The notes under the pieces: generated by a model
Told to the model about the DNA's origin: nothing
The model's database searches: none
The model's input: the letters and a program-made list of their open reading frames with translations, nothing else
Assembly (NCBI GenBank): GCA_963843795.1
Contig: CAWJLW010000006.1
Coordinates: 2,740,375-2,804,374, forward strand
From: an uncultured bacterium
GTDB lineage: Bacteria; Armatimonadota; Abditibacteriia; Abditibacteriales; Abditibacteriaceae
Length of the DNA: 64,000 bases
Direction: 5' to 3'
Program-made: the position numbers and the translations under genes
Shown: positions 2,308 through 63,147 of the stretch, piece by piece
Layout of the letters: every line of letters starts with the position of its first letter
Position numbering within the stretch: position 1 is the stretch's first letter

Positions 2308-2385
2308 ACGCTTGACTGAACGTCGACCAAACACGTTGCAAGTACTTGCACTCCTTATTTAGACGCTTTTAATAATCTTGGAATC

Positions 2386-3909
2386 ATGAACTTTTCACTT
2401 CAACTCGCCGACGCAACCACATTTCAAACGCCCTGTTTAGTGCTTCCTCTGTGGCAAGATCAGCCTTTGAGCGACGCGGCTCAAATCTGGAACGAGCGCT
2501 TGAGCGGCTTAATTCAAAGCGTGATCGACGAAGACGATTTTAAAGCCTCGGTCGGTGCGACACGCGTGCTTTATGTCACAGGCGAGGCTGCAAGTACTTG
2601 CAGTCGTATTTTGCTACTTGGATTAGGCAAATGCGAGGCTTTTTCACCTTGGAAATGGCGTCAGGCGACCGCCAAAGCCGCGCGCGCGGTGCGCAGTATC
2701 AAGCGTTCAGAATTCGCTCTGGCGCTACCGCAGTGCGACAAAGAATGCCAGATTTCGGCTATCGAAACCGGACAGGGCGCAGTTGAAGGCATTTTGCTGG
2801 GCTTGCATCAATACAACGACTTCAAGACCGACGACGAGACTAAAAATCAAACCAAAATCGAAAACGTTACTCTCTTAGCGCCCGAAAATTCCGACAGCGC
2901 AGCGTTGCAAAATGGCATCGAGCGCGGGCAGATTATCGGCGGCGCTAATCTTAGCGCGCGCAAATGGGTCAACATGCCGTCCAACTTCAAAACGCCCGAT
3001 TATCTGGCTTTGGAATCGAAGCGCGTGGCGGAAGAAACGGGTTTGAAGTGCGAAATTTGGGACGAAAATCGAATCCGCGAAGAAAAGATGGGCGCGCTTT
3101 ACGGCGTCGGTATGGGTTCGGACAATCCGCCCCGTTTCATCATTTTGGAGCACGCTCCTGAAGGTAAAGAAAACGATGCGCCGATTATTCTGGTCGGCAA
3201 AGGCATCAGCTTCGACACAGGTGGCTACTCGATCAAACCCGGCTCGGGCATGGAAGACATGAAAGACGACATGGGCGGCGCGGCTGTCGTGATGGGAGCG
3301 ATGGAAGCGGTCGGCAAAATGAAGCCCGATCAGCGCATTATCGGTATCGTGTCGAGCGCGGAAAACATGGTCAGCGGCAACGCGCAGCGTCCCGGCGACA
3401 TCGTCACAGCACGCAACGGTTTGACGATTGAAGTTTTAAATACCGATGCCGAAGGCCGTCTGGTTTTAGCCGATGCGCTTTCTTATGCCAGCGAATTAAA
3501 GCCGCGCGTGATTTTAGATTTCGCGACTTTGACCGGCGCCATCGGCATCGCACTGGGCCAGCACGCAGCGGGCTTATTTTGCAACGATGACGAATTGGCC
3601 GCGCAGCTTTCCGAAGCTGGAGATCGCAGCGGCGACCGCGTGTGGCGTTTACCGATTTGGGAAGAATACAAGGACGCGATGAATGGCAATATCAGCGACC
3701 TGAAAAATATTACCGGTGACCGTTATGCGGGTTCGATTACCGCTGCGACGTTTTTGGAAAGATTCGTCGGCGAAGATATTCCGTGGGCGCATCTGGACAT
3801 CGCGACGATGGCTGCCATTAAAGAAGAACGCCCGCTTTCACAGCGCGGTGCAACCGGCTTCGGCGTGCGTCTGGTAATCGACTGGCTGGAACATTTGCCA
3901 GCGAAATGA
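2386..3909 (+). CDS. pepA: Leucyl aminopeptidase (M17)
   Basis: LVGKGISFDTGG, MKDDMGG, NTDAEGRLVLAD and WAHLDIA motifs. Confidence 0.96.
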   Translation: MNFSLQLADATTFQTPCLVLPLWQDQPLSDAAQIWNERLSGLIQSVIDEDDFKASVGATRVLYVTGEAASTCSRILLLGLGKCEAFSPWKWRQATAKAARAVRSIKRSEFALALPQCDKECQISAIETGQGAVEGILLGLHQYNDFKTDDETKNQTKIENVTLLAPENSDSAALQNGIERGQIIGGANLSARKWVNMPSNFKTPDYLALESKRVAEETGLKCEIWDENRIREEKMGALYGVGMGSDNPPRFIILEHAPEGKENDAPIILVGKGISFDTGGYSIKPGSGMEDMKDDMGGAAVVMGAMEAVGKMKPDQRIIGIVSSAENMVSGNAQRPGDIVTARNGLTIEVLNTDAEGRLVLADALSYASELKPRVILDFATLTGAIGIALGQHAAGLFCNDDELAAQLSEAGDRSGDRVWRLPIWEEYKDAMNGNISDLKNITGDRYAGSITAATFLERFVGEDIPWAHLDIATMAAIKEERPLSQRGATGFGVRLVIDWLEHLPAK

Positions 3910-4035
3910 ATTCACCGCTAAGCCCGCGAACAACGCAAAAGTTTAAAAGTCATCCTCGGCAAATACCTGCATAAGAGTTCTGCACTTTTTTCTCATTTCA
4001 CATCATTGCGTTCTTCGCGGGCATTGCGACGAATT
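3909..4035. repeat. Intergenic inverted-repeat element (second repeat family)
   Basis: Arms GCCCGCGAACAACGCAA (3922-3938) and TTGCGTTCTTCGCGGGC (4006-4022) pair at 16/17. Related to the hairpin at 41055-41110. Confidence 0.6.
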
Positions 4036-4049
4036 TAAAAGGAGCGAAG

Positions 4050-4955
4050 ATGCTGCGTGATCCTTGGTCGGAAGATGTGTCGATTTTGTCGTCAGAAAAC
4101 GTGCGTTTTGGCGTCGAGACGGCGGGTCTTGGGTCGCGCTTTGCCGCTGCATTCATCGATATTTTCTTGCAGGGCATCGTGATGGCGCTGATTTCAATTC
4201 TCAGCGCATATATCGCTTCGGTATGGAATTATGGCGCGTGGGGCCAACTGGCTTCGCAGCTTGGGCAAGCGTTCTTCGTACTGGTGATGTTCGTCATCGT
4301 CTGGGGCTACTACTTTATTTTCGAGTGGCTGTGGGACGGTCAAACGCCGGGCAAACGCATGTTGGGTTTGCGAGTTTTGCACATCGATGGAATGCCCTTA
4401 ACGCCGTGGGGCGCGCTGGTGCGCAATGTGGTGCGCGTTTTTGATTTCCTGCCCCTGTTTTACGGAGTGGGGGCGCTGATGGCAATCACGAATGATAATA
4501 ATCGGCGCGCTGGCGATTTGGTCGCGGGCACCATCGTCGCTCGCGAACGCCACGACGCCGAACGTCCTATAATGTCAATTGCACAGGCCGCAGAAGCCTT
4601 TTTGCAAGCCCAATCTTCCCGCCAAAAACTTCCTTATTCAAACGCGCCGCAAGTACTTGCCGGAACCGAGTCTTCCCAAAATACGCCGCAAGTATTTGCG
4701 GGGAGAAATTCCGATATCGAAGATTTTTCTCGACGGGGCGAAGAATTAGAAAACCTCATTGTAGCAGCCAAATTGGCGCCGGGCGACTGGGAAATGTTAG
4801 ACGATTTCCTCCATCGGCGCGCCAAGCTGCAAGATAATGTACGGGCGCGACTGGCGCGCACATTGGCCACACAACTCAGCGCTAAAATTGGTCAGACTTT
4901 GGCCACGGGCGAAGACGCCGAAAGTTGGCTGCAAACGCTGGCAGCGCGACGCTGA
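4050..4955 (+). CDS. RDD family membrane protein
   Basis: AGLGSRFAAAFID, GQTPGKRMLGLRV and RRAGDLVAGT motifs. AGGAG RBS. Confidence 0.9.
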   Translation: MLRDPWSEDVSILSSENVRFGVETAGLGSRFAAAFIDIFLQGIVMALISILSAYIASVWNYGAWGQLASQLGQAFFVLVMFVIVWGYYFIFEWLWDGQTPGKRMLGLRVLHIDGMPLTPWGALVRNVVRVFDFLPLFYGVGALMAITNDNNRRAGDLVAGTIVARERHDAERPIMSIAQAAEAFLQAQSSRQKLPYSNAPQVLAGTESSQNTPQVFAGRNSDIEDFSRRGEELENLIVAAKLAPGDWEMLDDFLHRRAKLQDNVRARLARTLATQLSAKIGQTLATGEDAESWLQTLAARR

Positions 4956-4995
4956 TGCCAAGTGCGGAATATGTGTTTCAGGTGGCCTCAATTTC

Positions 4996-6846
4996 ATGTC
5001 GATTCCTTTTCCACGACACTTTCCGCAGGCCAATCCGATTGTAGTGCGCGAAGGACGCGCGCGCTGGCGTGGCAGCCGCGCCTTCTGGATCGCACTGGCC
5101 TATGCGCTCATTCTGTCGTCGATCATGTGGTATAGCTACAACGACTTGAGTTCGAGCAGTCGCTACGGCACTGACAGTCTGGATGAAATCAGTGTCGCGG
5201 CACAGCGCGGCCACGAACTGTTCCTGCTGCTTTCTGTTTTACAAACCGGCATCTGGCTTTTGATTGCGCCCGCCTTAACCGCAACTTCCATCGCTGTCGA
5301 GCGCGAAAGCGGATTGCTGTCGGCGATGCTGCTCTCGAAGCTGACGCCCGGCCAAATCGTGCGCGGCAAACTGTTTTCGGCCTTGAGCTTTGTGCTATTG
5401 CTGATTATGGTCGCTTTGCCCATCACGGCGATTTGTTTTTTGATGGGCGGCGTTTCGCAAGGCGAATTTATCGGAGCGTTGGCAATTCAACTCGCAACTG
5501 CATTATGCGGCGCTTCGATTGGGCTGGCGGCTTCAGCTTTTCAAAAGCGCGCCGCGCCCGCAATGGGCATGACGTTTGGTTTCATCGTGTTCTGGATCGT
5601 TTCCAGCGGCCTCGCTTTCGTATTGATCAGCAGTGGCGGAACCGGATTATTTGCCAGAAATTTCGCGTGGCTGGATGCGTTTTTTGGTTTGTACAGTTGG
5701 ACAAATCCGCTGCTCGCGATACTGAATCTGGTCGCGCCCGAAGCGGACATCGCCAGTTATCCAGGACAATTGACGATGCCCGATTGGTGGCGCGGCTGGC
5801 ATTTTTCCATTGTAGCGTTATTGCTTTTCAGCGCGTTGCGCTTGTGGCAAACCGCGCGCATCTTGCGGCTTGCGCCCGATTTGGAAGAAGTCGAAAAAAC
5901 ACCTAAAATCAACCGCTTTTTCAAAAATCGCTCCACCCAAACCGTCACAATTCCCGAACCCAAGCGCGACGAGCGCTGGCGCATTCCGATTGCGTCGAAA
6001 GTGTTGTTTGGCGATGCAGCGATGCGCCGAGAATTGGCGGCGCGCTGGAAAATTCGTCGCGCCTCGTCGCGCGTTTTGTGGGCGTTCGCACTGCCCATTG
6101 CTTACGGCTTCTACTGGTACTTGCGTGCGCTGCTGTGGCTGTGGCGCAATCCCACCGACCGTCCCGGCGTATTTATCGCCACGTCGATGGGATTTCTGCT
6201 GGGCTGGATTTTAAGCAGCGTTTTAATGAGCGCGGGCACAATTTCGCGAGAACGTGAAACCGGAACATGGAATGGCTTACGTCTGACTTTGCTCAGCGAA
6301 CGCTCAATTCTAACCGCCAAAGTCGTCGCACCGGTTGTCGCGTGTGCAATTTATTCGTTGCCACTGTTGCCGCTGATTTTATTTTGCTGGCCCGATCATT
6401 TGGGCGTCATTCACCGGCACTATTCGGATGCAGGATTGGTGCAATGGCTGCTGGCTTTGGTTTTGTTGCTGGCTGTGACGTTAGAATGTTCGTGTTTGGG
6501 CGTGTGGTGGTCGCAGCGCGCCCGTTCGACAGCGAGCGCGACCGGCGCGACATTGGGAACATTATGTGTTTTATGGATTGTGATTCCGATTTTGGTGGGC
6601 CAACTGTTGCGTTACGAAAGCCAAAACACCTTTGAAAATTTCATGATTTATTGGCATCCATTCGTCGGATTAATCGAACTTCTCAATCAGCCCAGCCATT
6701 ATTCTTACGATTATGGGGCGCAGAATTTGATTTCGCTCAAGCAAAGTTTCATGTTGATGATGCTGTTTCATTTGAGCGTCGCCACCACTTTTTTTGCTCT
6801 GGCACTGCGTCGCTTTCGCCGCGCCAATCGACTGGAACGCAATTAA
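4996..6846 (+). CDS. ABC-2-type permease-like membrane protein with internal duplication
   Basis: Two copies of the NP..RE / I..ERE.G....L.L..L....I..GK module. Start taken at ATG 4996. Confidence 0.75.
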   Translation: MSIPFPRHFPQANPIVVREGRARWRGSRAFWIALAYALILSSIMWYSYNDLSSSSRYGTDSLDEISVAAQRGHELFLLLSVLQTGIWLLIAPALTATSIAVERESGLLSAMLLSKLTPGQIVRGKLFSALSFVLLLIMVALPITAICFLMGGVSQGEFIGALAIQLATALCGASIGLAASAFQKRAAPAMGMTFGFIVFWIVSSGLAFVLISSGGTGLFARNFAWLDAFFGLYSWTNPLLAILNLVAPEADIASYPGQLTMPDWWRGWHFSIVALLLFSALRLWQTARILRLAPDLEEVEKTPKINRFFKNRSTQTVTIPEPKRDERWRIPIASKVLFGDAAMRRELAARWKIRRASSRVLWAFALPIAYGFYWYLRALLWLWRNPTDRPGVFIATSMGFLLGWILSSVLMSAGTISRERETGTWNGLRLTLLSERSILTAKVVAPVVACAIYSLPLLPLILFCWPDHLGVIHRHYSDAGLVQWLLALVLLLAVTLECSCLGVWWSQRARSTASATGATLGTLCVLWIVIPILVGQLLRYESQNTFENFMIYWHPFVGLIELLNQPSHYSYDYGAQNLISLKQSFMLMMLFHLSVATTFFALALRRFRRANRLERN

Positions 6847-6901
6847 ACGCTACTAAAATGCGCTGCAAGTACTTGCAGCGCCCCTTTTGTCCACAGCTTT
6901 C

Positions 6902-8680: not shown

Positions 8681-8793
8681 CGAAAAGACAGTAACTCTAA
8701 CACTTCACGGCAGTTTTTCATAATGGCAACAATGCTGCAACAAGAGAAATAGAATTGAAGGATGAACGGGCAAATTATACGGGGAGGTACACC

Positions 8794-10080: not shown

Positions 10081-10089
10081 AAGAAGTTT

Positions 10090-10131
10090 AAACAATAAGA
10101 GTGCGCAGCGTGCTGCGCACTCTTATTGTTT
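10090..10131. terminator. Bidirectional hairpin between convergent genes
   Basis: AAACAATAAGAGTGCGCAGC-gt-GCTGCGCACTCTTATTGTTT, with 20-bp arms. Confidence 0.7.
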
Positions 10132-10555: not shown

Positions 10556-10599
10556 GTTGATTGAAGCATCGGCCTTTGCAAGTACTTGCAAGGTAAAAT

Positions 10600-21714: not shown

Positions 21715-21906
21715 AGCAATGGGGCGCTATCGACACAAACGCATCAAATCGCACTTTGACCCAGCAAGGGCAGCGCACTCCAAAGCCAGAAGCCAACGAT
21801 TGTTACAGTCCACAGCGCGACCAAAATTTCTTTGAAGTTCATTTGAGGTTCCTGTAAAAGTGCGATACAAGTACTTGAGGCAAGTACTTGCATCGCCCAA
21901 TTTCGC

Positions 21907-26384: not shown

Positions 26385-26436
26385 AGAAACCACAAAAGCG
26401 CTCGGCAAGTACTTGCCGAGCGCTTTTGTGGTTTCT
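26385..26436. terminator. 52-bp perfect palindrome centred on the iterated motif, probable bidirectional terminator
   Basis: AGAAACCACAAAAGCGCTCGGCAAGT|ACTTGCCGAGCGCTTTTGTGGTTTCT, between convergent mltG and acpS. Confidence 0.8.
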
Positions 26437-26443: not shown

Positions 26444-26824
26444 TTATTCGCCTTCAAAAATCACCACAGCAACAGCGACGCCGCCATCGTGGGTTAAGGA
26501 AACGTTGACGTTTTTCACGCCCATGTGCGAAGCAAGTTCGGCGGCGCGACCGTGAATGCGCAGAATTGGTTTGCCGCTGGGTAAACTCGCGACTTCAAAT
26601 TGTTTCCATGCCACGCCCTGACGCCAGCCGGTGCCCAATGCCTTACTCGCAGCTTCTTTGGCCGCAATGCGCGCGGCATATTGTTCGGCGTTGTTAACGT
26701 AGCGCTCGCAGTAAGCGATTTCGCCCTGAGTGAAACAACGGCGCGTGAAGCGCTCGCCGTAGCGCGCCAAATAGCGCTCGATGCGCTCGATACGACAAAT
26801 ATCGGTACCCAAACCTAAAATCAT
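26444..26824 (-). CDS. acpS: Holo-ACP synthase
   Basis: GLGTDI, AAKEAASKALGTG, GKP and SLTHD motifs. GAGG RBS. Confidence 0.95.
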   Translation of the reverse strand: MILGLGTDICRIERIERYLARYGERFTRRCFTQGEIAYCERYVNNAEQYAARIAAKEAASKALGTGWRQGVAWKQFEVASLPSGKPILRIHGRAAELASHMGVKNVNVSLTHDGGVAVAVVIFEGE

Positions 26825-26897
26825 AACCTCAGTAAAACCAAAAAGCGCGCTGCAAGTACGTGTGTATGTACTTGCAGCGCGCTTTGGGCTTTGAAAT

Positions 26898-27404
26898 TCA
26901 GGCCGCGAAGGCGCGCACGTCATCTTCGGACAAAACTTTGCCGGGCAGTTTTGCCGCGACATCTTCCAATTTCACGTTCAATTCGCGCGCGGCACGTCGC
27001 GCCGCAGGCGTCGCACGAATGCGCGAACCCGCTGTGGGCGCTGCGCCTTTGTTAGTTGTTGCAGGCACTTTGAGCGCAAGCGCGCTTTCATCGGATTTTT
27101 TGGATGCGCCGCGCTGCAAGGCTTCATTGGCGTTTTGGGCTTGGTTCAGCGCATCGCTAATGTTTTCACCGAGTTCGCCACACAGCGCGATGACAAAGCC
27201 GACGGGCACGATAGATTTTTCGGGCGCGACAATTTTTAACAGCGTGCCGGAAATTTCGGCGGGCAAATCGAAAGTGGTTTTTTCCGTAATGAGTTCGCAC
27301 AATGCGTCACCAATTTCGACGCGGTCGTTTTCGTTCTTGCGCCATGCACCGATTGTGGCTTCTTCCATGTTCTCGAACGCCTGCGGAATGATAATTGTCT
27401 GCAT
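26898..27404 (-). CDS. Stand-alone lipoyl/biotinyl domain plus E3-binding (PSBD) domain protein
   Basis: EATIGAW.K...D.V..GD.L.EL.TEK....PA...G.L..I lipoyl-like domain and ATPAARRAAREL...V...DV PSBD. No catalytic domain. Confidence 0.8.
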   Translation of the reverse strand: MQTIIIPQAFENMEEATIGAWRKNENDRVEIGDALCELITEKTTFDLPAEISGTLLKIVAPEKSIVPVGFVIALCGELGENISDALNQAQNANEALQRGASKKSDESALALKVPATTNKGAAPTAGSRIRATPAARRAARELNVKLEDVAAKLPGKVLSEDDVRAFAA

Positions 27405-31925: not shown

Positions 31926-32751
31926 TCAAGCCCGATTTTCTGCGCGCGCCGCGCGGTGCAATTCTTTGAGATGAGCGATTAAAATCGGTGCTTCGCGTTC
32001 AAAATCCACGAAACGGCCTTCGAACGAACAACCTTCGTTGTAGTCAACAGCTTCCAGAGCAGCGAAAAACTGGTCCAAATTACTATCGTCACCCGCGACC
32101 GGCACGTTGCGCGGACGGGACGCAATATGAACGTGCTGCAAGTATTTGCCACCGCGCGCAATGTTATCCAAAGTTTCATTTTCGGCCAGCATATGAAACC
32201 AATCAGCCAAAAGTTGAATGTGTGGATGGTCGATGGCTTCGACGAGTTCAGCTCCGCGCGCCACATCGTTGATGAAATTATCTTCTTTACGATTCAATGG
32301 TTCGATGGCGATCATGATGCCCGCATTCTGGGCAATGGGACCTAGCGCACGTCCGAATTCGATGAACTGTTCCTCAGCGCGCGCTGAGCGAAAAACCATC
32401 CGGCACACGGCGCGCTCCCGCCGAACCCAAAACGACCGTTAAACCGCCAACCTGATGGCAACGATTGAGGGCAGTTTCGGCATAATTCAGCACGCTTTGC
32501 AGATCGACATCCGGTCCGGTGATGCGCTGATTTGCGGGCAAAAAACCGTTGAACGCTTGCACGGAAACCGGCGCATCTTTGAGTAGTAGGGCCAATTCAT
32601 CGAAATCGTCATTCATCATTTGCCCGACACCCATTTCAAAAAAATCGGCATTGGACGCGCACAAAACATTCTGCAAACGCGCCATGTTTTCGCGCAGCGA
32701 ACTGCCTTCGCTCGCCATCGTTTGCGGCCCACAACATAATCCAAATCTCAT
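31926..32751 (-). pseudogene. Sugar phosphate isomerase/epimerase (TIM barrel), frameshifted at about 32385 (may be a sequencing error)
   Basis: The N half (VVLGSAGARRVPDGF) and the C half (IEPLNRKE, D.FHM, HVH, SFE) lie in different frames. Confidence 0.75.
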
Positions 32752-39373: not shown

Positions 39374-39413
39374 GCAAAAAGCGCGCTGCAAGTACTTGCA
39401 GCGCGCTTTTTGC
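39374..39413. terminator. 40-bp perfect palindrome on the iterated motif
   Basis: GCAAAAAGCGCGCTGCAAGT|ACTTGCAGCGCGCTTTTTGC, downstream of the cysteine synthase gene. Confidence 0.7.
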
Positions 39414-46590: not shown

Positions 46591-46632
46591 TGCTCGCAAG
46601 TACTTGCACGCGCGTGCAAGTACTTGCGAGCA
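46591..46632. repeat. 42-bp perfect palindrome containing two copies of the iterated motif
   Basis: TGCTCGCAAGTACTTGCACGC|GCGTGCAAGTACTTGCGAGCA, in the divergent kinase/ispH upstream region. Confidence 0.9.
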
Positions 46633-47826: not shown

Positions 47827-47868
47827 CACAAAAAACGCCCTGCAAGTACTTGCAGGGCGTTTTTTGTG
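47827..47868. terminator. 42-bp perfect palindrome on the iterated motif, bidirectional terminator
   Basis: CACAAAAAACGCCCTGCAAGT|ACTTGCAGGGCGTTTTTTGTG between convergent genes, with T-tracts on both strands. Confidence 0.85.
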
Positions 47869-47904: not shown

Positions 47905-48678
47905 TTACTTGGGCAAGTCTGCGTCCAAGTTGATCCAAGTGCCAGTCGCAGTTGGGTAAGGATGTCCTGCTAAAGGTGCCTGACCCTGACGTGTTTCCTT
48001 ATAGGCTTTAACGTGACCATCGGCATACAGGATGTTGTTCGTGCCGAGATGGCGTCCATCGGCGGTTGAAGCGGCTGGCAAATCGTTGAAGTTATATGTG
48101 GTGCTGGAAGCGCTTTGGTCGGTATGTTCCAACACAGCATAATTGTTCCAGTTGGCAGCACTGACCGTATTAGACGGGCCTTTCTGAATGCGCTCAGTGA
48201 GCAAAACGGTGAGCGAAGGCGCTTGGAGCAAAGCGATGGGACGGTTGCGCGTGTAGTTGGCCATCGAATAGGAACGGGTGACCAGACCAAATGGTGAACC
48301 TAAATCGACACGCGGGGTTTGGCTATCGCTGGGGCAAGTCAAAACTTGCAGACTTTTCGTATACGGCTGGATTTCTAAATCCCATGTCGCAGTGATGTTA
48401 TTGGCACCAACTTTGGCAGCGCCATCACTGCTCAGAGGATAAGTCTCGTCGTAATCTTGCACATACTGCAAAACACCAAGACCAAGCTGCTTAAGGTTCG
48501 ACTGGCAAGATGCACGACGGGCGTTTTCACGGGCACGGGCAAAAACCGGGAACAAAATGGCGGCCAGAATCGCAATAATAGCAATAACAACCAAAAGTTC
48601 GATAAGAGTAAAGCCTTTGTTGGCAAATCCCTTTTTGTGCGACAACTTGATTTTGTCGCGCAGTAAAATGAATGACAT
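47905..48678 (-). CDS. Prepilin-type N-terminal methylation / DUF1559 / H-X9-DG protein
   Basis: [38 protein letters not shown] and [16 protein letters not shown] motifs. Confidence 0.95.
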
Positions 48679-49402: not shown

Positions 49403-50860
49403 ATGAAATCCACCAAATTTTGTCTGTTTTTACTGGCTTTGCAGGCCTCCCCTTTTGCGGCAGCGCCTATTGCGCGTTATTTTTTGCCGCGGGCGCTGGC
49501 GCAGCCCCTGCCCGAACGTCGTGTCTTGAGCGGGCGCATCACCGACGACGCGGGCAATCCGCTGCCACGCATCAATATCACGCTACAGCGTGAAAACGAT
49601 ATGGGCGCACACGCGTTCTGGGGTACAGTTGCCGTGACCGATGCGCAAGGGCGCTTTCGCATCGACAACGCCGAAGATGGTGCTTATCTTATTTCTGCTG
49701 AGGGCGACAATTTTTCCAACGTGCAAAACCAGCATTTGCGCATTGATGCCAACTCGACGGTGTGGAACACCCAGCTGCAACGCTTGACCAATTTGCTACT
49801 GCTGCTGAAAGATACTGAAGGCAAAATTCTGCCGAAAGCGCGCGTCGCCTTGCGCCTCAGTAAAAGCTCTGGTTCCGATGCCGATATCAATCGAATGGCT
49901 TTTGCGCGCAAAATGCAGCGTCGCGCCAACACGAATAATAAAGGCGAATTGCAAATGCCCAACATCGAACCCGGAACCTACACACTTGATATTGCGTTGC
50001 CCGGCGTTGGTTTTGCCAAGATTGAAAATTTCGAAGTGAAGTATGAAGCCAAACCCAGCGCGCGCGAAGTGCAATTGCAGCGCGGCGGCAATGTGAAGTT
50101 GGTCGCGCGTGAAAATGATGCAGACGGGCGTTTGCTGGGCGGGGCTGTCTTGACATTGGGCGAAGACGTGCAGATTACCGCTGAGCAGCGCGCGCAAGGC
50201 GCTTTGGTGCGGCAGGGCGCGATGGATTTGAGCAATCTGTATGCGTGGAGCTCTGACGGTTCGCGCGCAGTCACCAGCGATGGTGATGGCGCGCTGGAAT
50301 TGCAAGACCTCGCCCCCGGAAAATATACCGCGCGTCTGATTTTGCCCGGCTATGCACCCGGCGAAGCGCAAAGTTTTGAAATTCAAAGCGGCCAAAATAA
50401 AACTCTAACCTTTGATCTCAAACCACGCAGCAAAGCCAAAGCAATTGATTTCATTCTCCAAACCCCCAATGGCGCGCCCGTCGCTGACCGCGATTGGACG
50501 TTGCAATTGCGCTGGGTGCAACCATTGCCAACTGCGCCCGCCACGCCAGTGCCCGACACCGTTGTTACTGCGCCACCAGAAGTAATGACGTTGCCGCTCG
50601 AAACTGCACCACTGCCGCCGGGCGCGTTGAATTTGGGGTTGGAAGACGAAGGCCTGACTAACTTTCCCGGCATAATAGCGCGCCGCGTGCATGCGAACGA
50701 AAAAGGCCAATTTACCCTGTATCCAATGCAAGCAGGTCGCTGGATGCTAACGATTTTTGCCACGCCACAAGAAGATGCTGGCCCGCGCGGGCCTATCACG
50801 CAACAAACTATCGACATCGATGCCAGTAAACCGGTGCTGATAACGCTGAAAATGCAGTGA
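49403..50860 (+). CDS. Secreted carboxypeptidase-regulatory-like (Cna-B/prealbumin-like) repeat protein
   Basis: [13 protein letters not shown] and repeated T+..G.+.+..L.PG.Y motifs. Start uncertain. Confidence 0.75.
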
Positions 50861-50865
50861 CGCGG

Positions 50866-50901
50866 CTTTTGTGGTCTGCAAGTACTTGCAGACCACAAAA
50901 G
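50866..50901. repeat. 36-bp perfect palindrome on the iterated motif
   Basis: CTTTTGTGGTCTGCAAGT|ACTTGCAGACCACAAAAG. Confidence 0.85.
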
Positions 50902-50967
50902 AGCGGTTTCCGTAACCTTAATGGATGCTCAGCAACTCGTATGCAAAGCGTTGTCGAAAAGTGCATT

Positions 50968-51726
50968 ATGCGCAATCAATTCTCCAGAACTCGCCACCTT
51001 CGTGGCCTTTCACCGCAGGCTTTTACCCTCATCGAACTTTTAGTCGTCATAGCTATCATTGCGATCCTCGCTGCGATTTTGTTTCCGGTTTTTGCCCGCG
51101 CGCGCGAACAAGCGCGGCGCGCCAGTTGCGGCAGTAATTTCAAGCAAATCGGGCTGGGCATGATGCAATACACGCAAGATTACGACGAGCGTTATCCACC
51201 GTTCAGTCTGGGCGCGGGCAACGTCGGTTTTCAGGGTTACAGCGGCGCGGATGGCGCCCGCTGGGTCGATGAGATTTTTCCGTATGTGAAAAGCGCGCAG
51301 ATTTTCGATTGTCCCAGCGGCAGCAAAAAAATGACGCTTTATCCGGGCGGCCAATTTTACGATGTCGGCACCTATTCTTACGGCTATGTTGCCGCTTCGG
51401 ACGCCACGTTTCCCGTCGGCGTCGCCGCCCGTTCGATGGCCGAAATTGAAGACACAGCCGGCACGCTGATGCTCGTGGAAGATGGACGGCAAGACGACGC
51501 AACTGGCAACCCGGAAACGCAGGGCCGCCTGATTCCCAAAGTTGGCGAATCGCTGGAAACTCTCGGCAGTCGCCTCAACGGTTTTCGCCACACCGGCGTG
51601 CCGCAAGACGATTACCCCAATTACGCTTTTAATGCCGCTTACGTCGATGGCCACGTCAAATGGACGCGCTTGACCGATTCCTGGCAAAATGGCGCGATGC
51701 GCATGTGGACAATCGCCGCCGATTAA
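50968..51726 (+). CDS. Prepilin-type N-terminal methylation / DUF1559 / H-X9-DG protein
   Basis: [38 protein letters not shown] and [11 protein letters not shown] motifs. Confidence 0.93.
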
Positions 51727-53477: not shown

Positions 53478-53549
53478 GTATTTCGGACAACCGCAAAAGA
53501 TTCAGATTCGACTGCGCCAATTACATCCACAATTCAATCAAACTGCAAA

Positions 53550-53705: not shown

Positions 53706-53734
53706 TTGCGATAAAGCGAAATTTATTCGATAAT
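53706..53734 (+). promoter_or_regulatory. Putative sigma70 promoter of the dcw cluster
   Basis: TTGCGA-17 nt-GATAAT with an AT-rich upstream region, ahead of mraZ. Confidence 0.55.
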
Positions 53735-53880
53735 GGACGGCGTGTGGAGCGCTGTGACGCCATAGGACTGATTTCAGGAAGCCATTAAAAAACGACCTGA
53801 ATCAAGCTGCAAAGTGTGGCACAGAGACATAGATAGTGCAACACGATTTCATTTCCTGTTAGTGATGACGGAACAATATC

Positions 53881-54720: not shown

Positions 54721-54752
54721 AAGTTCGGACGCAAAAAGTTTGGATACGGAGA

Positions 54753-55923: not shown

Positions 55924-56243
55924 AATGCACTTCGAGATTGCGCCGCAGAAACGCGTTAAAAACGATGCACCGCCCAAATCAAGTACTTGCGGGCGTCCTG
56001 AGGCCAAAAGTACTTGCCACGCCGAATCCGTCACAAACCGGTCGAGACGACCGGTTTCACCCACCGCCATTTGAAGCCCTATCGGGCTATCGAATGAGCG
56101 GCTTTGTTGTGTTTGAAAGTCGTATCTGAAAGTCGTAACTCAAAAGCCACAAAAGGTCGCATTGGAAGATGAGTTGTTTGGTTTCATTGAATGTTTTTGC
56201 GAACCGCTCAATGAAACTTGAAGTTGTATTTCTGGAGAAGCAG

Positions 56244-57032
56244 ATGGCTGCCGCAGCGCCCAAATCCGATTATCGTTCCCTCGTCGAAAACGCGCCTCTG
56301 GCGCCCGACGACGCTCGCGCGCAGACGTCTCCTGCCCGCGATGCGGCGCAGCGCAACGTTTTGCAGCGCGACATCTCGCAACGTGCTGGTGCTCCCAATC
56401 GATTTGTGCTTTCCGAAGAAATAAGCGTGGTGCGAACTGCACCACGCGCGAATCCCCATTTACGCCGCGCGCGGCGCGAAGAACTTCATTTCGATAGTCA
56501 TCCCGATACGCTGACGCCGCACAGCAAACGCGACCGCCAGCGCGCCAAACATCATCGTCCAATTCGCCTGACTTGGTCCGCAGTTCTATGCGTTGCTGTG
56601 GTAATGGCGCAGTTAGTCCTTTTACTGCGCATGAACGCGCGGGCGCTCGAGGCCTCGCAGCAGGCGGGAGCGCTGGAAGCCAAAATCATTGAAACCTCGG
56701 ATCAGATCGAACGAACGCAGCAGCGCATTTCGGTTTATGATTCTTCAGCGCATCTCGCGCAATGGGCGCAAGAGCGCGGCTGGAAGCAAGCCGGTCATCT
56801 CGATATCGACGACGTAACGCGCGCGGGTTTGGCCGCCGCGATGCCAACGCCCGGCGCGACCGCCAAACCTGATGCTTATTTTATCGAAGGCCAAACCAAA
56901 AACCCCAATGAGCCGATTGCCGATGACGCGATTGCCGATAATGCGATTGCCGACGAAACAAAATCGGAAGATAAAAGCGCAGGTAATGAAATTAAGACGG
57001 GCGATGGGCCGGTGAGCAACGATGAGCGATAA
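56244..57032 (+). CDS. FtsL-like bitopic coiled-coil cell division protein
   Basis: Single TM followed by a coiled coil, located between rsmH and ftsI. GGAG RBS. Confidence 0.6.
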   Translation: MAAAAPKSDYRSLVENAPLAPDDARAQTSPARDAAQRNVLQRDISQRAGAPNRFVLSEEISVVRTAPRANPHLRRARREELHFDSHPDTLTPHSKRDRQRAKHHRPIRLTWSAVLCVAVVMAQLVLLLRMNARALEASQQAGALEAKIIETSDQIERTQQRISVYDSSAHLAQWAQERGWKQAGHLDIDDVTRAGLAAAMPTPGATAKPDAYFIEGQTKNPNEPIADDAIADNAIADETKSEDKSAGNEIKTGDGPVSNDER

Positions 57033-58905
57033 ACAACGCAAAAAACGGGACGCGGAAAAAGTGCAGGCACCGATGCCCAATGGCGTCAAACGGCGCATTG
57101 AGAATTCGTGTTATCTGTTTTTGGTTGTCGTGATTGGTTTTGCGATTCGTGTCGTGCAATTACAGGCTTTCGCACGTAGCGACAAAATTGATGTCGCCAC
57201 GACTTTTAACAACACGCAAGTTTTGCCCGCGCGACGCGGGCAAATTCTGGCTAAAGACGGAACGGCGCTGGCAGTTACGTTGAACCAGTTCAACGTCGCA
57301 GTCAACCCGCGCGCAATAAACGACAAGCCGAAAATGGCACGCTTAATCGCCGCAGCGATTGGTGGAGATAGCAGCAAGTACTTGCAGGAGATGGGCAAGG
57401 TCGAGCGGCCCGATGGCAAGCCGAATTATTATGTGCGCCTGGCTCGTAATGTCGAAGAAAATCGCATTGATGAGCTGAGGAAAGTGATGGGCGCGAAAGA
57501 CGGCGAATCGCGCAAAACGCGCGCTCTGCGCAGAGAATTCTGGTCACCACTGACACTCGAACCTTCGCCGCGCCGTCAATATCCCTTGGGCGCATTCGCA
57601 CCACAATTGATCGGTTTCACCGGACGCAACGGTCACGGCGCCGATGGCTTGGAAAAAGCGTGGGATGAAACTCTGGCCGGCAAAGATGGCGAAGTGAAAT
57701 CGCAAGTCGATTCGCGTGGTCGTCCAGTTCCGGGTTTTGTTGCGCAGTGGCAGCAGCCGGTTCCGGGTCGTTCAATTGTCACGACCATCGACCCACAAAT
57801 TCAAGCTGACACCGACAGCGTTTTGCAGCGTTTGGTCGATAAATACAAGCCAAATTTCGCAACGGCGATTGTCATGAAGGCCGACACCGGCGAAATCGTG
57901 GCAATGTCGAATGCGCCGATTTTCGACCTTAACAAAAAACCTGATAATGTGGTCGAATTGGCAACTAATCGTTGTTTGACTTACGCCTACGAGCCGGGTT
58001 CGACATTCAAAATCATTACCGCCGCCGCCGCAGTAGAAAACGTGCCTGATTGGAAAACGCGCACCTACTGGGTGACGGGCGCGGAGCCAGTCGGCAAGCA
58101 TGTGATTCATGACTGGACGTTTTGGTCGGGCCGCGCCAAATCGGAAAATAAAACGCTTTCCGATGGCATTCGCGATAGCTCGAATATTACGATGTGGCAT
58201 TTCGCGCACGCCATGGGCGCGCCGACACTGGCCAAATACGCGGAAAATTTCGGCATTGGTAAAAATGTCGAGTTGGGGCCGCTGCCAACAGCGCGTGGCA
58301 TGATGCCGCGCAATGCGCCCAGCACATGGGGCGATGCGCAACTGGCCAACTTTTCGTTCGGGCAAGGTATGATGCTGACGCCGATTCAGTTAGTACGCGC
58401 GGTCGGCGTGGTGGCCAATGACGGTGTGTTAGTGCAGCCACGTATTGTGAAAGAGTTGCGCGACGAACAAGGCCGCGCGATTCAAACATTCCCCAAGCGC
58501 GAAAGTGGTCGCGTCATCGAAAGCGAAACGGCCAAAGCGGTGACGAAGATGATGGTTCGCGTAGTCGCTGAGGGCACAGCACGCAAATACGTTTTCGTGC
58601 CAGGTTACTCGACCGCAGGCAAAACCGGCTCAGCGCAAAAAGCTGATGGCAAACGCGGTTATAATAACGGCAAATTCATTTCGTCGCTGGCTGGTTTCGT
58701 GCCCGCGAACCAACCGCAATACGTGATTTTGGTGATGGCCGACGAGCCGCACGGCAGCCACTGGGGCAGCGAGGTGTGCGGCCCGGCGTTCAACGAAATT
58801 GCAAACAAAGCGATGCTGCATTTGAGATTGGAAGAAGGCGCCGATGCTCCTGCGCCCGATCCAAATTTGATGGTGCAACCCAAAACGCCGCAAGTACTTT
58901 CGTGA
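57022..58905 (+). CDS. ftsI: Class B penicillin-binding protein (FtsI/SpoVD-like)
   Basis: RG.I..KDG, RQYP, EPGSTFK, SSN and KTG motifs. Confidence 0.92.
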   Translation: MSDKQRKKRDAEKVQAPMPNGVKRRIENSCYLFLVVVIGFAIRVVQLQAFARSDKIDVATTFNNTQVLPARRGQILAKDGTALAVTLNQFNVAVNPRAINDKPKMARLIAAAIGGDSSKYLQEMGKVERPDGKPNYYVRLARNVEENRIDELRKVMGAKDGESRKTRALRREFWSPLTLEPSPRRQYPLGAFAPQLIGFTGRNGHGADGLEKAWDETLAGKDGEVKSQVDSRGRPVPGFVAQWQQPVPGRSIVTTIDPQIQADTDSVLQRLVDKYKPNFATAIVMKADTGEIVAMSNAPIFDLNKKPDNVVELATNRCLTYAYEPGSTFKIITAAAAVENVPDWKTRTYWVTGAEPVGKHVIHDWTFWSGRAKSENKTLSDGIRDSSNITMWHFAHAMGAPTLAKYAENFGIGKNVELGPLPTARGMMPRNAPSTWGDAQLANFSFGQGMMLTPIQLVRAVGVVANDGVLVQPRIVKELRDEQGRAIQTFPKRESGRVIESETAKAVTKMMVRVVAEGTARKYVFVPGYSTAGKTGSAQKADGKRGYNNGKFISSLAGFVPANQPQYVILVMADEPHGSHWGSEVCGPAFNEIANKAMLHLRLEEGADAPAPDPNLMVQPKTPQVLS

Positions 58906-58949
58906 GCAAAGTAGTTCTCCGCCCGCATGCGGGCGGAGAACTACTTTGC
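58906..58949. repeat. 44-bp perfect palindrome with a different centre (GCATGC)
   Basis: GCAAAGTAGTTCTCCGCCCGCA|TGCGGGCGGAGAACTACTTTGC, between ftsI and murE. Confidence 0.85.
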
Positions 58950-59000
58950 ACATTCTCAATTCCACATTTCAACGTCCACATTCCGCCGTTATAAACGCTT

Positions 59001-60527
59001 ATGCCGCTGCTTAAAGAATTGCTCGGGTCACTGCCTAACGCGCGCATTATCGGCTCGCCCACGACCGAAGTGAGCGCGCTCGCCTACGATTCGCGCGAAG
59101 TTTCGATGCACACTGCATTTGTCGCCATTCGCGGTTATCAGCGCGACGGCCACGAATTTCTCGCGCAGGCCGTCGAGCGCGGCGCCAGCGTTTTAGTCGT
59201 CGAAGACGAAAGTGCGTTGCCCGAACTTCCCGCCAATATCGCTGCCGTCGTCGTCGAAGATACGCGCGTGGCCATGGCATATCTGGCTTCAGAATTTTAC
59301 GGCCATCCCTCGCGCGAACTGCTGCTCATCGGCGTCACTGGCACCAATGGCAAAACGACCGTCGCGCATCTAGTCGCGCAAATGCTGCGCGAAGCTGGTT
59401 ATCAAAGCGTTGGCATCATCGGCACACTCGGCGCGGCGACCGAGCGTTCGGTATACGATACCGGACGCACGACGCCCGAAAGTCTGGATTTGCAACGTTT
59501 GCTGGCCGATTTTCTCGATGGTGGCAGCGAAGCCGTAGTGATGGAAGTTTCCAGCCACGCCTTAGCTTTGCAACGCGTCGCGGCGTGCGCTTTTGATGCG
59601 GGCATTTTCACCAACTTAACGCAAGATCATCTCGATTTCCATCCTGACATGGAAGATTATTTTCGTTCCAAAGCGCGTCTGTTTGATGAAGTGGCGCGCT
59701 ATTCCGAACAATTCAAAAGTTTCGGTGCGGTCATCAACGTTGATGACCATTATGGCCGCCGTTTGCGCGACGAAGTGTGCGCCGATTCGCTTTACATCAC
59801 TTACGGTATCGAAACCGAAGCGCACGTTTCCGCGGAAGCGATTCATTTGCGGCCCGATGGTACGAGTTTCGTAGCGCGCGCAACAGGCACCGATATTCAT
59901 CTCGATCTCAGCCTGGCCGGACGTTTCAACGTTTATAACGCGCTCGCCGCCGTCGCTTTTGGCTTGCTGCGCGAACAAGCGCCGAGTGAAATTCAAAGCG
60001 CCCTGCAAAGCAGCAACGCGCCCGAAGGTCGGATGGAAATGATCGATAACGACCGCGAAATTTACGTCGCAGTTGATTATGCCCACACACCCGATGGTTT
60101 GAAAAACGTGATGGCAACGGTGAAGGAATTCACGCCGGGCCGCCTGATTACGGTGTTCGGCTGTGGCGGCGACCGCGATCGCACCAAGCGTCCGCAAATG
60201 GGCGCAATCGCTGCGGGTTTCGCCGATGTTTGCATCGTAACTTCCGATAATCCTCGCACCGAAGAACCGCAGCAAATTCTGGACGACATCATGGCCGGAA
60301 TGCATGGACACGGCGCACAGGTCATAGTGGAAACCGACCGTCGCAAAGCCATCGAAGCCGCAATGAACGAAGCGCGACGCGGCGATTTCGTGCTCGTAGC
60401 GGGCAAAGGGCACGAAACTTATCAGATTTTCAAAGACCGCACGGTGCATTTCGACGACCGCGAGGTCGTGCGCGAATGGTTAGAAGAACACGACGGCGAT
60501 GAAATTGAAAAAGGTGGCCGCGCGTGA
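59001..60527 (+). CDS. murE: UDP-MurNAc-tripeptide (meso-DAP) ligase
   Basis: GVTGTNGKTT, EVSSH, DHLDFH, DYAHTPD, DNPR (DAP specificity) and AGKGHE motifs. Confidence 0.97.
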   Translation: MPLLKELLGSLPNARIIGSPTTEVSALAYDSREVSMHTAFVAIRGYQRDGHEFLAQAVERGASVLVVEDESALPELPANIAAVVVEDTRVAMAYLASEFYGHPSRELLLIGVTGTNGKTTVAHLVAQMLREAGYQSVGIIGTLGAATERSVYDTGRTTPESLDLQRLLADFLDGGSEAVVMEVSSHALALQRVAACAFDAGIFTNLTQDHLDFHPDMEDYFRSKARLFDEVARYSEQFKSFGAVINVDDHYGRRLRDEVCADSLYITYGIETEAHVSAEAIHLRPDGTSFVARATGTDIHLDLSLAGRFNVYNALAAVAFGLLREQAPSEIQSALQSSNAPEGRMEMIDNDREIYVAVDYAHTPDGLKNVMATVKEFTPGRLITVFGCGGDRDRTKRPQMGAIAAGFADVCIVTSDNPRTEEPQQILDDIMAGMHGHGAQVIVETDRRKAIEAAMNEARRGDFVLVAGKGHETYQIFKDRTVHFDDREVVREWLEEHDGDEIEKGGRA

Positions 60528-61960
60528 GCAGTTCGACTTCGTTGCCTCCGCGCAATGGTGCCACGTTTACACTTGAAGAAATCGTGCTCGCCACCAGGGG
60601 CACGCTACGTAATGCGCCTCAGGCCGCTGCAAGTACTTGCAGCGTAGTTACCGACACGCGATTGCTGAAAAATGCTGATAAAAAAGCGTCTGCAAGTACT
60701 TGCGGGGCGCTTTTCGTGGCGTTGCGGGGCGAAAATTTCGACGGCCATCGGTTTCTCGACCAAGCGTTCGACGATGGCGCAACTGCGGCTTTAGTGCACA
60801 GTGCAACCGCTAATCAACAACCGCAAATCGAAGTCGAAAACACCCAAAATGCCTTGGGCGATTTGGCGAAATTCCATCGCAAGCGCTTTGACATTCCGCT
60901 TATTGGCGTCACCGGTTCGTATGGAAAAACCACAACGCGCGCTTTTATTGCGACAGCTCTCGCAGCCAAATTTGCGAATCGCGTGCTGGCGACCCAAGGC
61001 AACTACAACAACGAAATCGGTGTGCCGTTAACGGTTTTGGCGCTGGATAAAGAACAGCACCACATCGCAGTTTTGGAATTGGCGATGCGCGGACTGGGCC
61101 AGATCGATTACTTGGCCAACATCGCGCAGCCGACGATTGGCGTCATCACCAATGTTGGCCCGCAACACATCGAACTATTGGGTTCTTTGGAAAATATCGC
61201 GCGCGCCAAAGCCGAACTTCTGGCGCATTTGCCCGCAAGTGGCAGCGCGATTTTGCCCTTTGATGACCAGTTTTTCGATTTTCTGAAAAACGCCGCACCG
61301 TGTAAAATTTTGAGTTTCGGCACATCCGAAAACGCCGATTTTCGCGTGAGTGATTTTGAATCACTTGAAAATGGCGCGCGCTGCGTTTTGTCTTACAACA
61401 ACACAAATTACGAATTAACTTTGCCGCTGCCCGGAATGCACAATGCGATTAACGCGGCGTGCGCGATTGCCGTCGCAAGTACTTGTGGGGTCGCAATTGA
61501 AGCCGCGATTGAAGCATTGGCGAACGTGGAAGTGCCGGGCGCGCGCATGCGTGTGTTCAAAAACGAAGCGCGCGACATCACGATTATTGACGATTGTTAC
61601 AACGCCGGACCGGATTCGATGCGCGCCGCGCTGCAAGTACTTGCGGGCTTCCCGGGCGATCATCGACGCGTGGCGATTTTGGGCGCGATGAAGGAATTGG
61701 GCGCTTGGAGCGAAAACGAACATCGCAAATTGGGCGCAGCAGTGAGAAAAAGCGGCACGCAAGTACTTGTCGGCGTGGGCGAAGAAACGAAATCGATGCT
61801 GGAAAGCGCGCATGATTTAGAAACCTATGCTTGCGACGATGCGCGTGAAGCGGCGCAATTGGTCGCAAGTTTGGTGCGCGCGGGCGATGTCATTTTGGTT
61901 AAGGGCAGTCGCAGCATCGGATTGGAAAAGGTGGTGACGACGCTTGAACACGGCGAATAA
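60524..61960 (+). CDS. murF: UDP-MurNAc-pentapeptide synthase
   Basis: LRGENFDGH, GVTGSYGKTTT, NNEIGVP, DDCYNA.P.SM and VKGSR motifs. Confidence 0.96.
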   Translation: MSSSTSLPPRNGATFTLEEIVLATRGTLRNAPQAAASTCSVVTDTRLLKNADKKASASTCGALFVALRGENFDGHRFLDQAFDDGATAALVHSATANQQPQIEVENTQNALGDLAKFHRKRFDIPLIGVTGSYGKTTTRAFIATALAAKFANRVLATQGNYNNEIGVPLTVLALDKEQHHIAVLELAMRGLGQIDYLANIAQPTIGVITNVGPQHIELLGSLENIARAKAELLAHLPASGSAILPFDDQFFDFLKNAAPCKILSFGTSENADFRVSDFESLENGARCVLSYNNTNYELTLPLPGMHNAINAACAIAVASTCGVAIEAAIEALANVEVPGARMRVFKNEARDITIIDDCYNAGPDSMRAALQVLAGFPGDHRRVAILGAMKELGAWSENEHRKLGAAVRKSGTQVLVGVGEETKSMLESAHDLETYACDDAREAAQLVASLVRAGDVILVKGSRSIGLEKVVTTLEHGE

Positions 61961-63101
61961 CGGCCTGACGGATTTGCTGCTTCAGCAGTGGTTTTTAGGC
62001 GGGGTCGCCTTCGCGTGCGCATTCGTCGTGATGGCGATTACGGGCCGCACACTTATCGCTTGGCTCAAAAGCCTGCCGGGCATGAAATGGTCGGCGCGTG
62101 AAGATACGCCCGACACGCATTTGCAAAAAGCGGGTACGCCTTCGATGGGCGGTCTGGGAATTATCGGCAGCGCAATCATGGGTTATCTGGCAGTTTTGCC
62201 AGTCATCATGGTTTTTCCGCAGCAGTTTTTCGCGCCTCCAAACACTGCAAATACCGGTTTGGCACAGTTCGATTGGACTCACACCATTCTCGCACTGGCG
62301 TTATTACCGCTAATGACGATAACGCACATGGTTTTGGGTTACGTCGACGATTGGAGCAAAGCGACCGGTCGCGGCGGCTTGCGCGCGCGCGCCAAATTTG
62401 CCGGACAAGTCGTGCTTTCGATGGCGTTTCTAGGCGCGGTCTACTGGCTCACGGCGCACCAAAACTTCAACGGAATTCGCTTTTTCGCTTCGGGAACCAA
62501 CGGTGATTTTTTGTTCAATCCCGCCAATCCGTTGATTTTGTTGTTCGTGGGCGCGTTTTTGTTGCTGGTTTTATTAGCGACTTGCAACGCGGTCAACATC
62601 ACCGATGGCATTGATGGCCTGGCAGCGGGTTTGGCGGCTCAGTGCGGAATCTGGCTTTACTTGGCAGGTGTCGAGAACAACAACGTGAAATTGTGGGGCG
62701 ATGTGTGGTGGATGGCTTTGGCCGGTGCATGCGCGGGCTTTTTGATTTTCAACAAATACAAAGCGCAGGTTTTCATGGGCGATACCGGCTCACTGGCCCT
62801 CGGCGCGGCGTTGGGCGGCGCGGCAGTTATGGGACGCGCAGTCTTTTTGTTGCCATTCATCGGTTTTGTTTTCTGGATCGAATTGTTCAGCGTGACGGCT
62901 CAGGTGCTTTATTTCAAATACACCAAGCGTCAAACTGGCGAAGGTCAGCGCATTTTCCGACGCGCGCCCCTGCACCATCATTTTGAACTTGGCGGCTGGA
63001 GCGAATGGCGCGTTGTACTGACGTTTTGGGCCATCAATTTCGTGACCGGCGCGGTCGGTTTGCTTTTGTGGACAATGGGAATTTTGCCACGTTTCCCGTG
63101 A
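61944..63101 (+). CDS. mraY: Phospho-MurNAc-pentapeptide transferase
   Basis: KAGTPSMGG, GYVDD, NAVNITDGIDGLA, FMGDTGS and APLHHHFE motifs. Confidence 0.97.
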   Translation: MNTANNGLTDLLLQQWFLGGVAFACAFVVMAITGRTLIAWLKSLPGMKWSAREDTPDTHLQKAGTPSMGGLGIIGSAIMGYLAVLPVIMVFPQQFFAPPNTANTGLAQFDWTHTILALALLPLMTITHMVLGYVDDWSKATGRGGLRARAKFAGQVVLSMAFLGAVYWLTAHQNFNGIRFFASGTNGDFLFNPANPLILLFVGAFLLLVLLATCNAVNITDGIDGLAAGLAAQCGIWLYLAGVENNNVKLWGDVWWMALAGACAGFLIFNKYKAQVFMGDTGSLALGAALGGAAVMGRAVFLLPFIGFVFWIELFSVTAQVLYFKYTKRQTGEGQRIFRRAPLHHHFELGGWSEWRVVLTFWAINFVTGAVGLLLWTMGILPRFP

Positions 63102-63147
63102 ATTTAAAATTTTTCCTGCAAGTACTTGCAGAGTCGAATCTAGTATT

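Follow-up and report, generated by a model that had tools for sequence, protein, structure and literature searches.

Why does a stretch of 64,000 nucleotides from an uncultured member of the Abditibacteriaceae (contig CAWJLW010000006.1, positions 2,740,375 to 2,804,374; the whole of it is called the window) carry the same short palindrome over and over again? The 10-bp core CAAGTACTTG occurs there 47 times exactly, compared with a mean of 0.02 in shuffled sequences. The genome studied (GCA_963843795.1, here G000) comprises 4,299,948 bp on 11 contigs, is 92% complete and contains the enclosing 12-bp word GCAAGTACTTGC throughout. The reading which we prefer, at a probability of about 0.5, is that this word is a species-specific tag of self-DNA driven by biased natural transformation, with the anatomy of the DNA uptake sequences (DUS) of Neisseriaceae and the uptake signal sequences (USS) of Pasteurellaceae and with a methylated core like that of the highly iterated palindrome HIP1 of cyanobacteria. 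In the following, G001-G020 and similar labels denote relative genomes, L-numbers fetched loci or contigs, and C2, C3 and C6 contigs of G000; papers are cited by accession and for the excerpts consulted.

Abundance, spacing and origin of the 12-bp word

Within the window 42 of the 47 cores grow to the 12-mer and 22 to a 14-mer, and 17 sites match the 12-mer with one or two mismatches. A preliminary description of the window had given about 47 cores, which is exact, and about 12 near-matches, which agrees with the 12 of these 17 sites that lack the 10-bp core. Its 14-bp unit had to be shortened: identity drops to 65-67% beyond the 12-mer, so that the conserved unit is 12 bp. In the genome as a whole 2,706 cores, 2,567 12-mers and 1,290 14-mers were found, for which an order-2 Markov model expects 2.7, 0.32 and 0.014, and the enrichment is thus not confined to the window. 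The density of the 12-mer is 0.60 per kb, i.e., one site per ~1.6 kb. On contig C6 it is flat (0.62-0.67 per kb in all five segments), without a gradient between origin and terminus, and no autocorrelation above ~0.05 was seen at 3-120 kb in a test less elaborate than the damped-sine analysis of PMC5861425. The 2,567 perfect copies stand beside 506 with one and 371 with two mismatches (perfect to single about 5:1). The word is a palindrome of which both halves are needed, one-sided copies being few, and the flanks beyond it share a weak consensus only. Short contigs of one public DNA run span several sites with 0-3 differences, although this run may be the source sample and not independent.

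Placement was based on our own gene calls (3,461 genes in G000), by which 2,559 sites were classified. The majority (1,810 sites, 71%) is intergenic, and 749 sites (29%) lie in coding sequences at 0.20 per kb. The highest density was found in convergent spacers (287 sites, 4.3 per kb), followed by tandem spacers (1,260 sites, 3.2 per kb) and divergent spacers (263 sites, 1.8 per kb; 233 of 455 such spacers tagged). Between 51 and 63% of the spacers have a site, and spacers from 40 bp to more than 500 bp each hold about 0.7 sites. None of the 47 tRNA genes of G000 has one. For the window, the intergenic majority of the preliminary description was retained, and its numbers (27 intergenic, 20 intragenic) became 32 and 15, a split that depends on the choice of start codons. 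Coding sites occur in all three frames and mostly read Q-V-L-A (491 of 749).

Over about 0.5-1 kb the sites keep apart from one another, and inside genes they fill gaps. Spacing in G000 is under-dispersed (variance/mean 0.52-0.63), and the pair correlation rises from ~0.5 at 100-600 bp to 0.7 at 800 bp and ~1 from 1 kb. Genes of 900-1,500 bp with none, one or two of their flanks tagged contain 0.44, 0.19 and 0.094 sites per kb, respectively (0.25, 0.20 and 0.11 with strict trimming of the ends). In G009, analyzed over 400 kb at a density of 0.85 per kb, repulsion is stronger and shorter, with a pair correlation of 0.14-0.24 below 300 bp and ~1 from 500 bp; there, no within-gene pair closer than 200 bp was observed versus 11 expected, and genes with zero, one or two tagged flanks contain 0.99, 0.50 and 0.36 sites per kb. 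The exclusion distance is species-dependent, ~1 kb in G000 and ~0.5 kb in G009. Repulsion is shown by perfect and one-mismatch sites, and plain GTAC repels the motif weakly below 300 bp (pair correlation 0.75-0.87) and not beyond (~1).

Orthologue alignments suggest that most coding sites were born by substitution. For 56 coding sites of G000, 100 of 128 alignments were ungapped and five had a gap of at least three codons; in the G009-G000 set 88 of 112 were ungapped, with an amino acid identity at the sites of 32% versus 64%. In the latter set 17 of the 112 coding sites (~15%, background 1.9%) lie in loops which are at least three codons longer and vary in length from 3 to 9 or more codons, and at no site was the site-bearing protein shorter by at least three codons.

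GTAC-centred dialects and a solitary methyltransferase

With regard to the relatives, for which the preliminary description had proposed a search, the exact word proved absent (0-3 copies of the G000 12-mer in 60 of 60), whereas its centre recurs: other dialects built around GTAC were found in 6 of 26 family relatives, and with G000 seven of 27 family genomes are tagged. Strong enrichment of AGTACT was seen in 6 of the 301 genomes from the phylum, and these all belong to Abditibacteriaceae. The reading as a genome-wide, lineage-specific, HIP1- or DUS-like motif holds. The Abditibacteriota lineage had been named correctly, and the sources of close homologues of one G000 protein place the genome in Abditibacteriaceae. 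The dialect of G001 is CAAAGTACTTTG and that of G012 GAGTACTC; G009, G015 and G019, which form one clade, use TCGAGTACTCGA, which G017 lacks although it belongs to the genus g6. G006 has a split dialect, AAGTACGGTCGA-WW-TCGACCGTACTT, a 26-bp form with 842 pattern matches. Every dialect contains GTAC in its core. Perfect versus mismatched copies number 95 versus 32 in G009, 34 versus 41 in G012 and 36 versus 40 in G001, at the consensus lengths chosen. Differing dialects share the same position in 10 of 33 cases versus 0.37 expected (exactly in 3 of 33 versus 0.02), numbers which permissive positions inflate.

Further dialects were detected among 80 metagenome loci retrieved via homologues of the methyltransferase described below: AAAAGTACTTTT in seven loci, a weak form of GGAGTACTCC, and in L411 a second split form (eight pairs, GTAC spacing again 18 bp). 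Split forms are imperfect palindromes of 24-26 bp, and directional half-sites occur just in G006 and L411. Three loci (L418, L442, L452) have 4.3 AGTACT per kb with mixed flanks. Contig L361 (JBPCNJ010000134.1), which is filed under Gemmatimonadaceae, is 77% identical to G000, has the same dialect and is probably mis-binned; it shares three aligned positions with G000, one of them a near-match in G000. A 16-mer scan of GTDB gave, among the at least 36 matches listed, 35 single chance hits and one related contig.

The remaining 20 family genomes were scored as untagged by genome-wide counts of two patterns and samples of 2-130 kb, a procedure which a non-AGTACT word could escape, and the tree is a FastTree reconstruction from two genes with weak deep branches. 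In many untagged members GTAC is almost lost (one AGTACT in 6 Mb in G005), and CTAG is depleted alongside. In the genera g2 and g5 the loss of GTAC and CTAG is near-complete and most 6-bp palindromes are strongly avoided; those g2 genomes without the methyltransferase avoid less (p=0.013; kin not independent). The untagged G004 (L138-L142) holds an abundant repeat of another kind, which resembles repetitive extragenic palindromes (REP).

G000 encodes one N6/N4 methyltransferase of the M.PabI-type class (C6:2517365-2518135). It lies outside the window, and the expectation that the cognate protein is encoded elsewhere has held. Dam-type and C5 methyltransferases were not found in G000, and two type I-like candidates are present. 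The enzyme occurs in 21 of 27 family genomes and in none of 274 other genomes of the phylum sample. Its homologues (56-61% identity) adjoin PabI-family genes in seven loci, two of them partial, and in 9 of 15 DNA pools around these homologues no 4-mer is more depleted than GTAC (in control loci it ranks 26, ratio 0.91). From homologue identity, PabI-family neighbours and GTAC avoidance we infer that the orphan methyltransferase probably makes GTm6AC. M.PabI makes GTm6AC, and solitary copies of the methyltransferase after loss of the restriction gene have been described (PMC10273834). The PabI/HpyAXII restriction-modification family is comparable in that enzymes akin to the orphan adjoin PabI-family genes and hosts avoid GTAC (PMC10273834). 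The present case differs in that GTAC is not only avoided but, in some lineages, multiplied as part of a longer word. A restriction gene was found neither in the 27 family genomes, in searches without a positive control, nor in the six frames of G000 with a profile that recovers the seven metagenome loci. The environmental contigs in which genes for PabI-family restriction glycosylases adjoin the methyltransferase have a GC content of 37-50% (L433:9264-9995, L438, L440, L445, L446).

Islands without the host word and with foreign words were also found. The two largest gaps on C6 (~26 kb each) comprise insertion sequences and a type I restriction locus. Contig C3, with three sites in 41 kb, carries an injection-system-like cluster; this gene cluster (C3:2634-27317) encodes an Afp-like extracellular contractile injection system and is nearly untagged. 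Off-consensus AGTACT occurs 321 times in G000, 50 of them in the poorly tagged 7% of the genome. A heavy-metal efflux island of the resistance-nodulation-division type is common to C2 of G000 (18.7 kb) and the untagged G017 (62-72% amino acid identity; loci L489:3400-11100, L490:1600-9300 and L488) and contains several foreign dialects, with 20 AGTACT in 20.5 kb versus none in 128.7 kb of G017 core. The same mixture was seen on contig C179 of G020. Mixed dialects would fit a passage through several hosts; an alternative, especially for L418, L442 and L452, is a single donor with a relaxed word. A plasmid-like element of patchy occurrence, which includes a YdjM fusion gene, is present in 3 of 27 family genomes (L418, L442, L452; L497-L502). 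In three metagenome loci it has its own methyltransferase copy and 4.3 AGTACT per kb, and in GTAC-avoiding hosts it contains no GTAC. Viral contigs gave no 18-mer match. Contigs with multiple copies of the 14-mer were rejected as phages of the G000 host, as their flank consensus differs and the similarity is just one weak protein match. Four IMG/VR contigs (L216, L235, L242, L280) are unrelated phage contigs in which GTGCAAGTACTTGCAC recurs between genes, probably as a phage operator, and L249 and L282 repeat a word resembling GTGCAAGTACTTGCAC.

Hairpins and individual copies in the window

The copies in the window, placed with our own gene calls, include the following.

2337..63130, no strand: 47 cores CAAGTACTTG (42 full 12-mers), ~0.7 per kb; 32 of the cores are intergenic, 15 coding
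26385..26436, no strand: motif as apex of a perfect hairpin with 21-bp arms and A/T tracts, between convergent mltG-like and acpS-like genes
47827..47868, no strand: motif as apex of a hairpin with 16-bp arms, between the convergent genes ispH (LytB) and one for a DUF1559 prepilin
39374..39413, no strand: hairpin copy of the consensus type, with the motif between two GC stems, an A tract before and a T tract after them, in a tandem spacer
21867..21892: doublet with a core distance of 13 bp, of the 12-13 bp doubled-apex class found genome-wide
46595..46628: pair of copies at a distance of 20 bp between divergent genes, which agrees with the helical phase of close pairs
57374..57385, + strand: coding copy in ftsI (S-K-Y-L-Q), gap-free against the orthologues of 13 relatives, two of which have AGTACT at the same codons
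61633..61644, + strand: coding copy in murF, read as Q-V-L-A; Q/E-T-L stands there in most relatives, which means a substitution and no insertion
61759..61770, + strand: coding copy in murF; G001 and G012 have their own dialects in this place

A hairpin extension, defined as at least 8 of 10 flanking pairs being complementary, is most common in convergent spacers, at 71% of the sites there; it accompanies 27% of the sites in tandem and 11% of those in divergent spacers, and in coding sequences 1.5%. Of the 262 sites in long tandem spacers, 132 lie at most 50 bp from the upstream stop. With extensions spread so unequally, termination is a secondary use, and the hairpin at 26385..26436 can be regarded as a terminator-like co-option acting in both directions. 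In other dialects extensions are rare (3 of 126, 0 of 84 and 0 of 42 sites). Among motif variants no bias toward G-U wobble was detected (68 vs 56, p=0.32) and each inner compensatory pair variant was seen just once or twice, which argues that the sequence is kept and not an RNA structure. Close pairs of sites are phased at ~10.5 bp (n=139, Rayleigh p ~2e-11). An A/T tract 9 bp outside the site accompanies 65% of coding sites versus 44% of controls, with a weaker bump in some intergenic controls. The DUF1559-type prepilin genes in the window (47905-48678 and 50857-51726) are two of ~30 in G000.

Explanations for the tag and its relation to known systems

Any explanation has to satisfy four demands: thousands of near-perfect sites are created at the expense of amino acid changes, the whole word is read in double-stranded form, saturation sets in at 0.5-1 kb, and the flanks shift between species. 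Biased transformation would account for all four. Judged from homology and gene neighbours, the solitary M.PabI-family methyltransferase would methylate the adenine of every GTAC. The anatomy of the sites suggests that a probably two-fold symmetric protein reads GTAC in double-stranded DNA together with the flanks peculiar to each species, be it at uptake or in the course of recombination. Fragments bearing a site would be taken up or integrated more often, so that point mutations creating a site could spread, and as one site is enough for ~0.5-1 kb, the observed spacing would result. As the sequence shows, sites settle in permissive places, and many of those after gene ends have grown into terminator-like hairpins. 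Finally, a shift in the flank preference of the reader may cause old sites to be rewritten to the new dialect. The preliminary description had left uptake, recombination, methylation and a nucleoid protein open; of these, methylation is likely a component and not the whole, and a site for nucleoid occlusion or segregation of the matS, parS or SlmA-binding type is disfavoured by copy number and flat density.

An intracellular repair or gene-conversion ratchet, as in Elhai's model for HIP1, would let methylation-directed repair favour the strand with the site until sites without function had accumulated to about one per repair tract; saturation would be expected near one site per 1,000 nt (PMC4390886). 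The GTAC core as a predicted methyltransferase target is in line with it, as are MutS in 5 of 5 genomes, the N-terminus of MutL in G000, the G012 8-mer of HIP1 size and the tags on resident mobile DNA. We nevertheless consider it unlikely, since a 4-bp methyl mark fails to explain 12-bp words, phased A/T tracts and the 26-bp split form of G006, the full word repels the motif and plain GTAC does not beyond ~300 bp, and the methyltransferase is also common in untagged genomes. The chance is smaller still that the word binds an abundant dimeric protein which organizes or protects the chromosome, with selection holding one site per kilobase. The perfect palindrome requiring both halves, the helical phasing, the gap filling and the positions conserved across dialects would be expected of such a protein, but the consensus is far purer than is usual for intracellular binding sites (an argument made in PMC1626085), the sites overwrite codons, 20 of 27 family genomes manage without the tag, and neither a gradient between origin and terminus nor, in the simple test, a long-range period was detected. 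No candidate tested positive: a list of 280 small basic proteins yielded no tested candidate, DpnI was found in 0 of 5 genomes in a search without a positive control, and EVE was rejected as not discriminating because it is present in 5 of 5.

REP and bacterial interspersed mosaic elements, which accompany RAYT transposases, are likewise short intergenic palindromes, many of which form terminator-like hairpins. A REP-like or miniature inverted-repeat transposable element spread by copying or insertion and retained as terminator would explain the intergenic excess, the hairpins of convergent spacers, the doubled copies at 12-13 bp, the coding sites in longer loops and the imperfect palindromes of the split forms. 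It is improbable all the same: 29% of the sites are coding and these mostly gap-free, the gaps vary in length, sites repel and do not cluster, and their flanks are only weakly alike. No RAYT gene flanked by the word was found in the 92% complete G000, the sole Y1_Tnp match being weak (E 4e-7) and flanked by a REP-like repeat of its own (L111:1060-1900), and Rfam gave no match within the window. The word does not behave as the end of such an element, an outcome which the preliminary description had named as refuting its reading. Very improbable is a signal for transcription termination or RNA processing. The sites just behind upstream stops and the peak of density between convergent genes would suit it, but hairpin extension is scarce at coding and divergent sites, about half of the divergent spacers are tagged, wobble and compensatory signals are lacking and hairpins are rare in other dialects.

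Several observations weigh against biased transformation as well. The repair ratchet and selection for a chromosome-binding protein predict even spacing too, in G000 the spacing within genes and the number of sites per gene agree with random placement, and the excess of longer loops points to some insertion. The methyltransferase is present in 7 of 7 tagged but also in 14 of 20 untagged family genomes (Fisher p=0.15); it is possibly necessary for the tag and not sufficient. ComEC (27 of 27), PilB (27 of 27), ComEA-type proteins (25 of 27) and DprA (4 of 5 genomes) do not differ between tagged and untagged genomes, nor does the content of the pil operon (pilB, pilT, pilC, pilD, four prepilins and a PilX-like giant) in the 16 loci compared. 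No reader protein was found among the competence, pil and candidate genes compared, and no ComP- or ComN-like receptor was identified, although no direct search for either was made. The cores of DUS and USS are directional, whereas the G000 word is a perfect palindrome. In G000 the pil operon has frame breaks; since 7 of 98 orthologues are broken and single-base indels were seen elsewhere against the public run contigs, these are probably indel errors of the long-read assembly. Such breaks affect rsmH, a dihydrolipoamide acyltransferase-like gene, the pil operon and mutS (window 54778, 54966, 26444-27404 and 31926-32718; C6:385799-398979 and ~2529270). Within the pil operon the minor pilins diverge fast (~25-40% identity). 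The PilX-like giant (1,281 aa) resembles PilX_N/DUF4900 clusters in the Atlas, which is a lead only, and has no sequence match in the PDB; it may resemble ComZ of Thermus.

A tag driven by biased transformation, as preferred here, works like DUS or HIP1, yet it is a member of neither as defined. With DUS and USS (features listed in PMC1626085, PMC3630211, and PMC3458573) it shares about one site per kb, more perfect than mismatched copies, a distribution more even than random, a mainly non-coding placement with many coding copies, dialects that follow phylogeny around a fixed core, foreign dialect copies, co-option as terminators and A/T tracts one helical turn apart. The half-site AAGTACGGT of G006 equals the core AAGTGCGGT of H. 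influenzae in 8 of 9 bases, with the mismatch in the GCGG inner core, and the overlapping dyad DUS pairs reported for Simonsiella, together with the spacing of USS pairs, bear on the split dialects (PMC3458573, PMC3630211). Unlike DUS and USS, the tag has a predicted methylation target as its core and belongs to Armatimonadota. HIP1 (GCGATCGC) and alternate HIPs are likewise hyper-abundant palindromes in coding and non-coding DNA (PMC4390886, PMC5861425, PMC13756078), with the target of an orphan methyltransferase (predicted here) as inner core, conserved positions and saturation near one per kb, and HIP1 raises transformation when methylated (bioRxiv 2024.09.10.611283; PMC13756078). Differences from HIP1 are the GTAC core, longer words (8-12 bp, or 24-26 bp when split), dialects at species level versus one phylum-wide word, the strong intergenic bias, phased flanks and, in the simple test, the lack of a kilobase-scale period; HIP1-type CGATCG is depleted in G000 (ratio 0.20).

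The preliminary description had put the motif forward as a candidate undescribed system, and no account of it was found in the literature searched, from which subscription journals are largely missing; the matches listed for the string CAAGTACTTG are unrelated by title and mostly of the eukaryotic primer type. According to the excerpt of PMC1626085 (2006), Neisseriaceae and Pasteurellaceae are the only groups with described uptake sequences, and the function of HIP1 is still being worked out according to PMC13756078. More tentatively, and at less than even odds, the Abditibacteriaceae could have a third independent system of sequence-specific uptake, the first with a GTm6AC core from a decayed PabI system, in which a pilus-tip or periplasmic reader switches flanks, and which would unite HIP1 and DUS/USS. 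If this is true, each host would mark the DNA residing in it by a dialect of its own, and earlier hosts could be read from mobile islands. In the family the tag has been gained, lost and switched in dialect many times by nature, its methyl mark is predicted and its exclusion distance can be measured, so that models of drive, ratchet and chromosome structure can be tested side by side. The dialects identify species in metagenome bins, where one mis-binned contig was caught, and flag acquired islands and their earlier hosts. Dialect tags may also be needed to transform Abditibacteriaceae.

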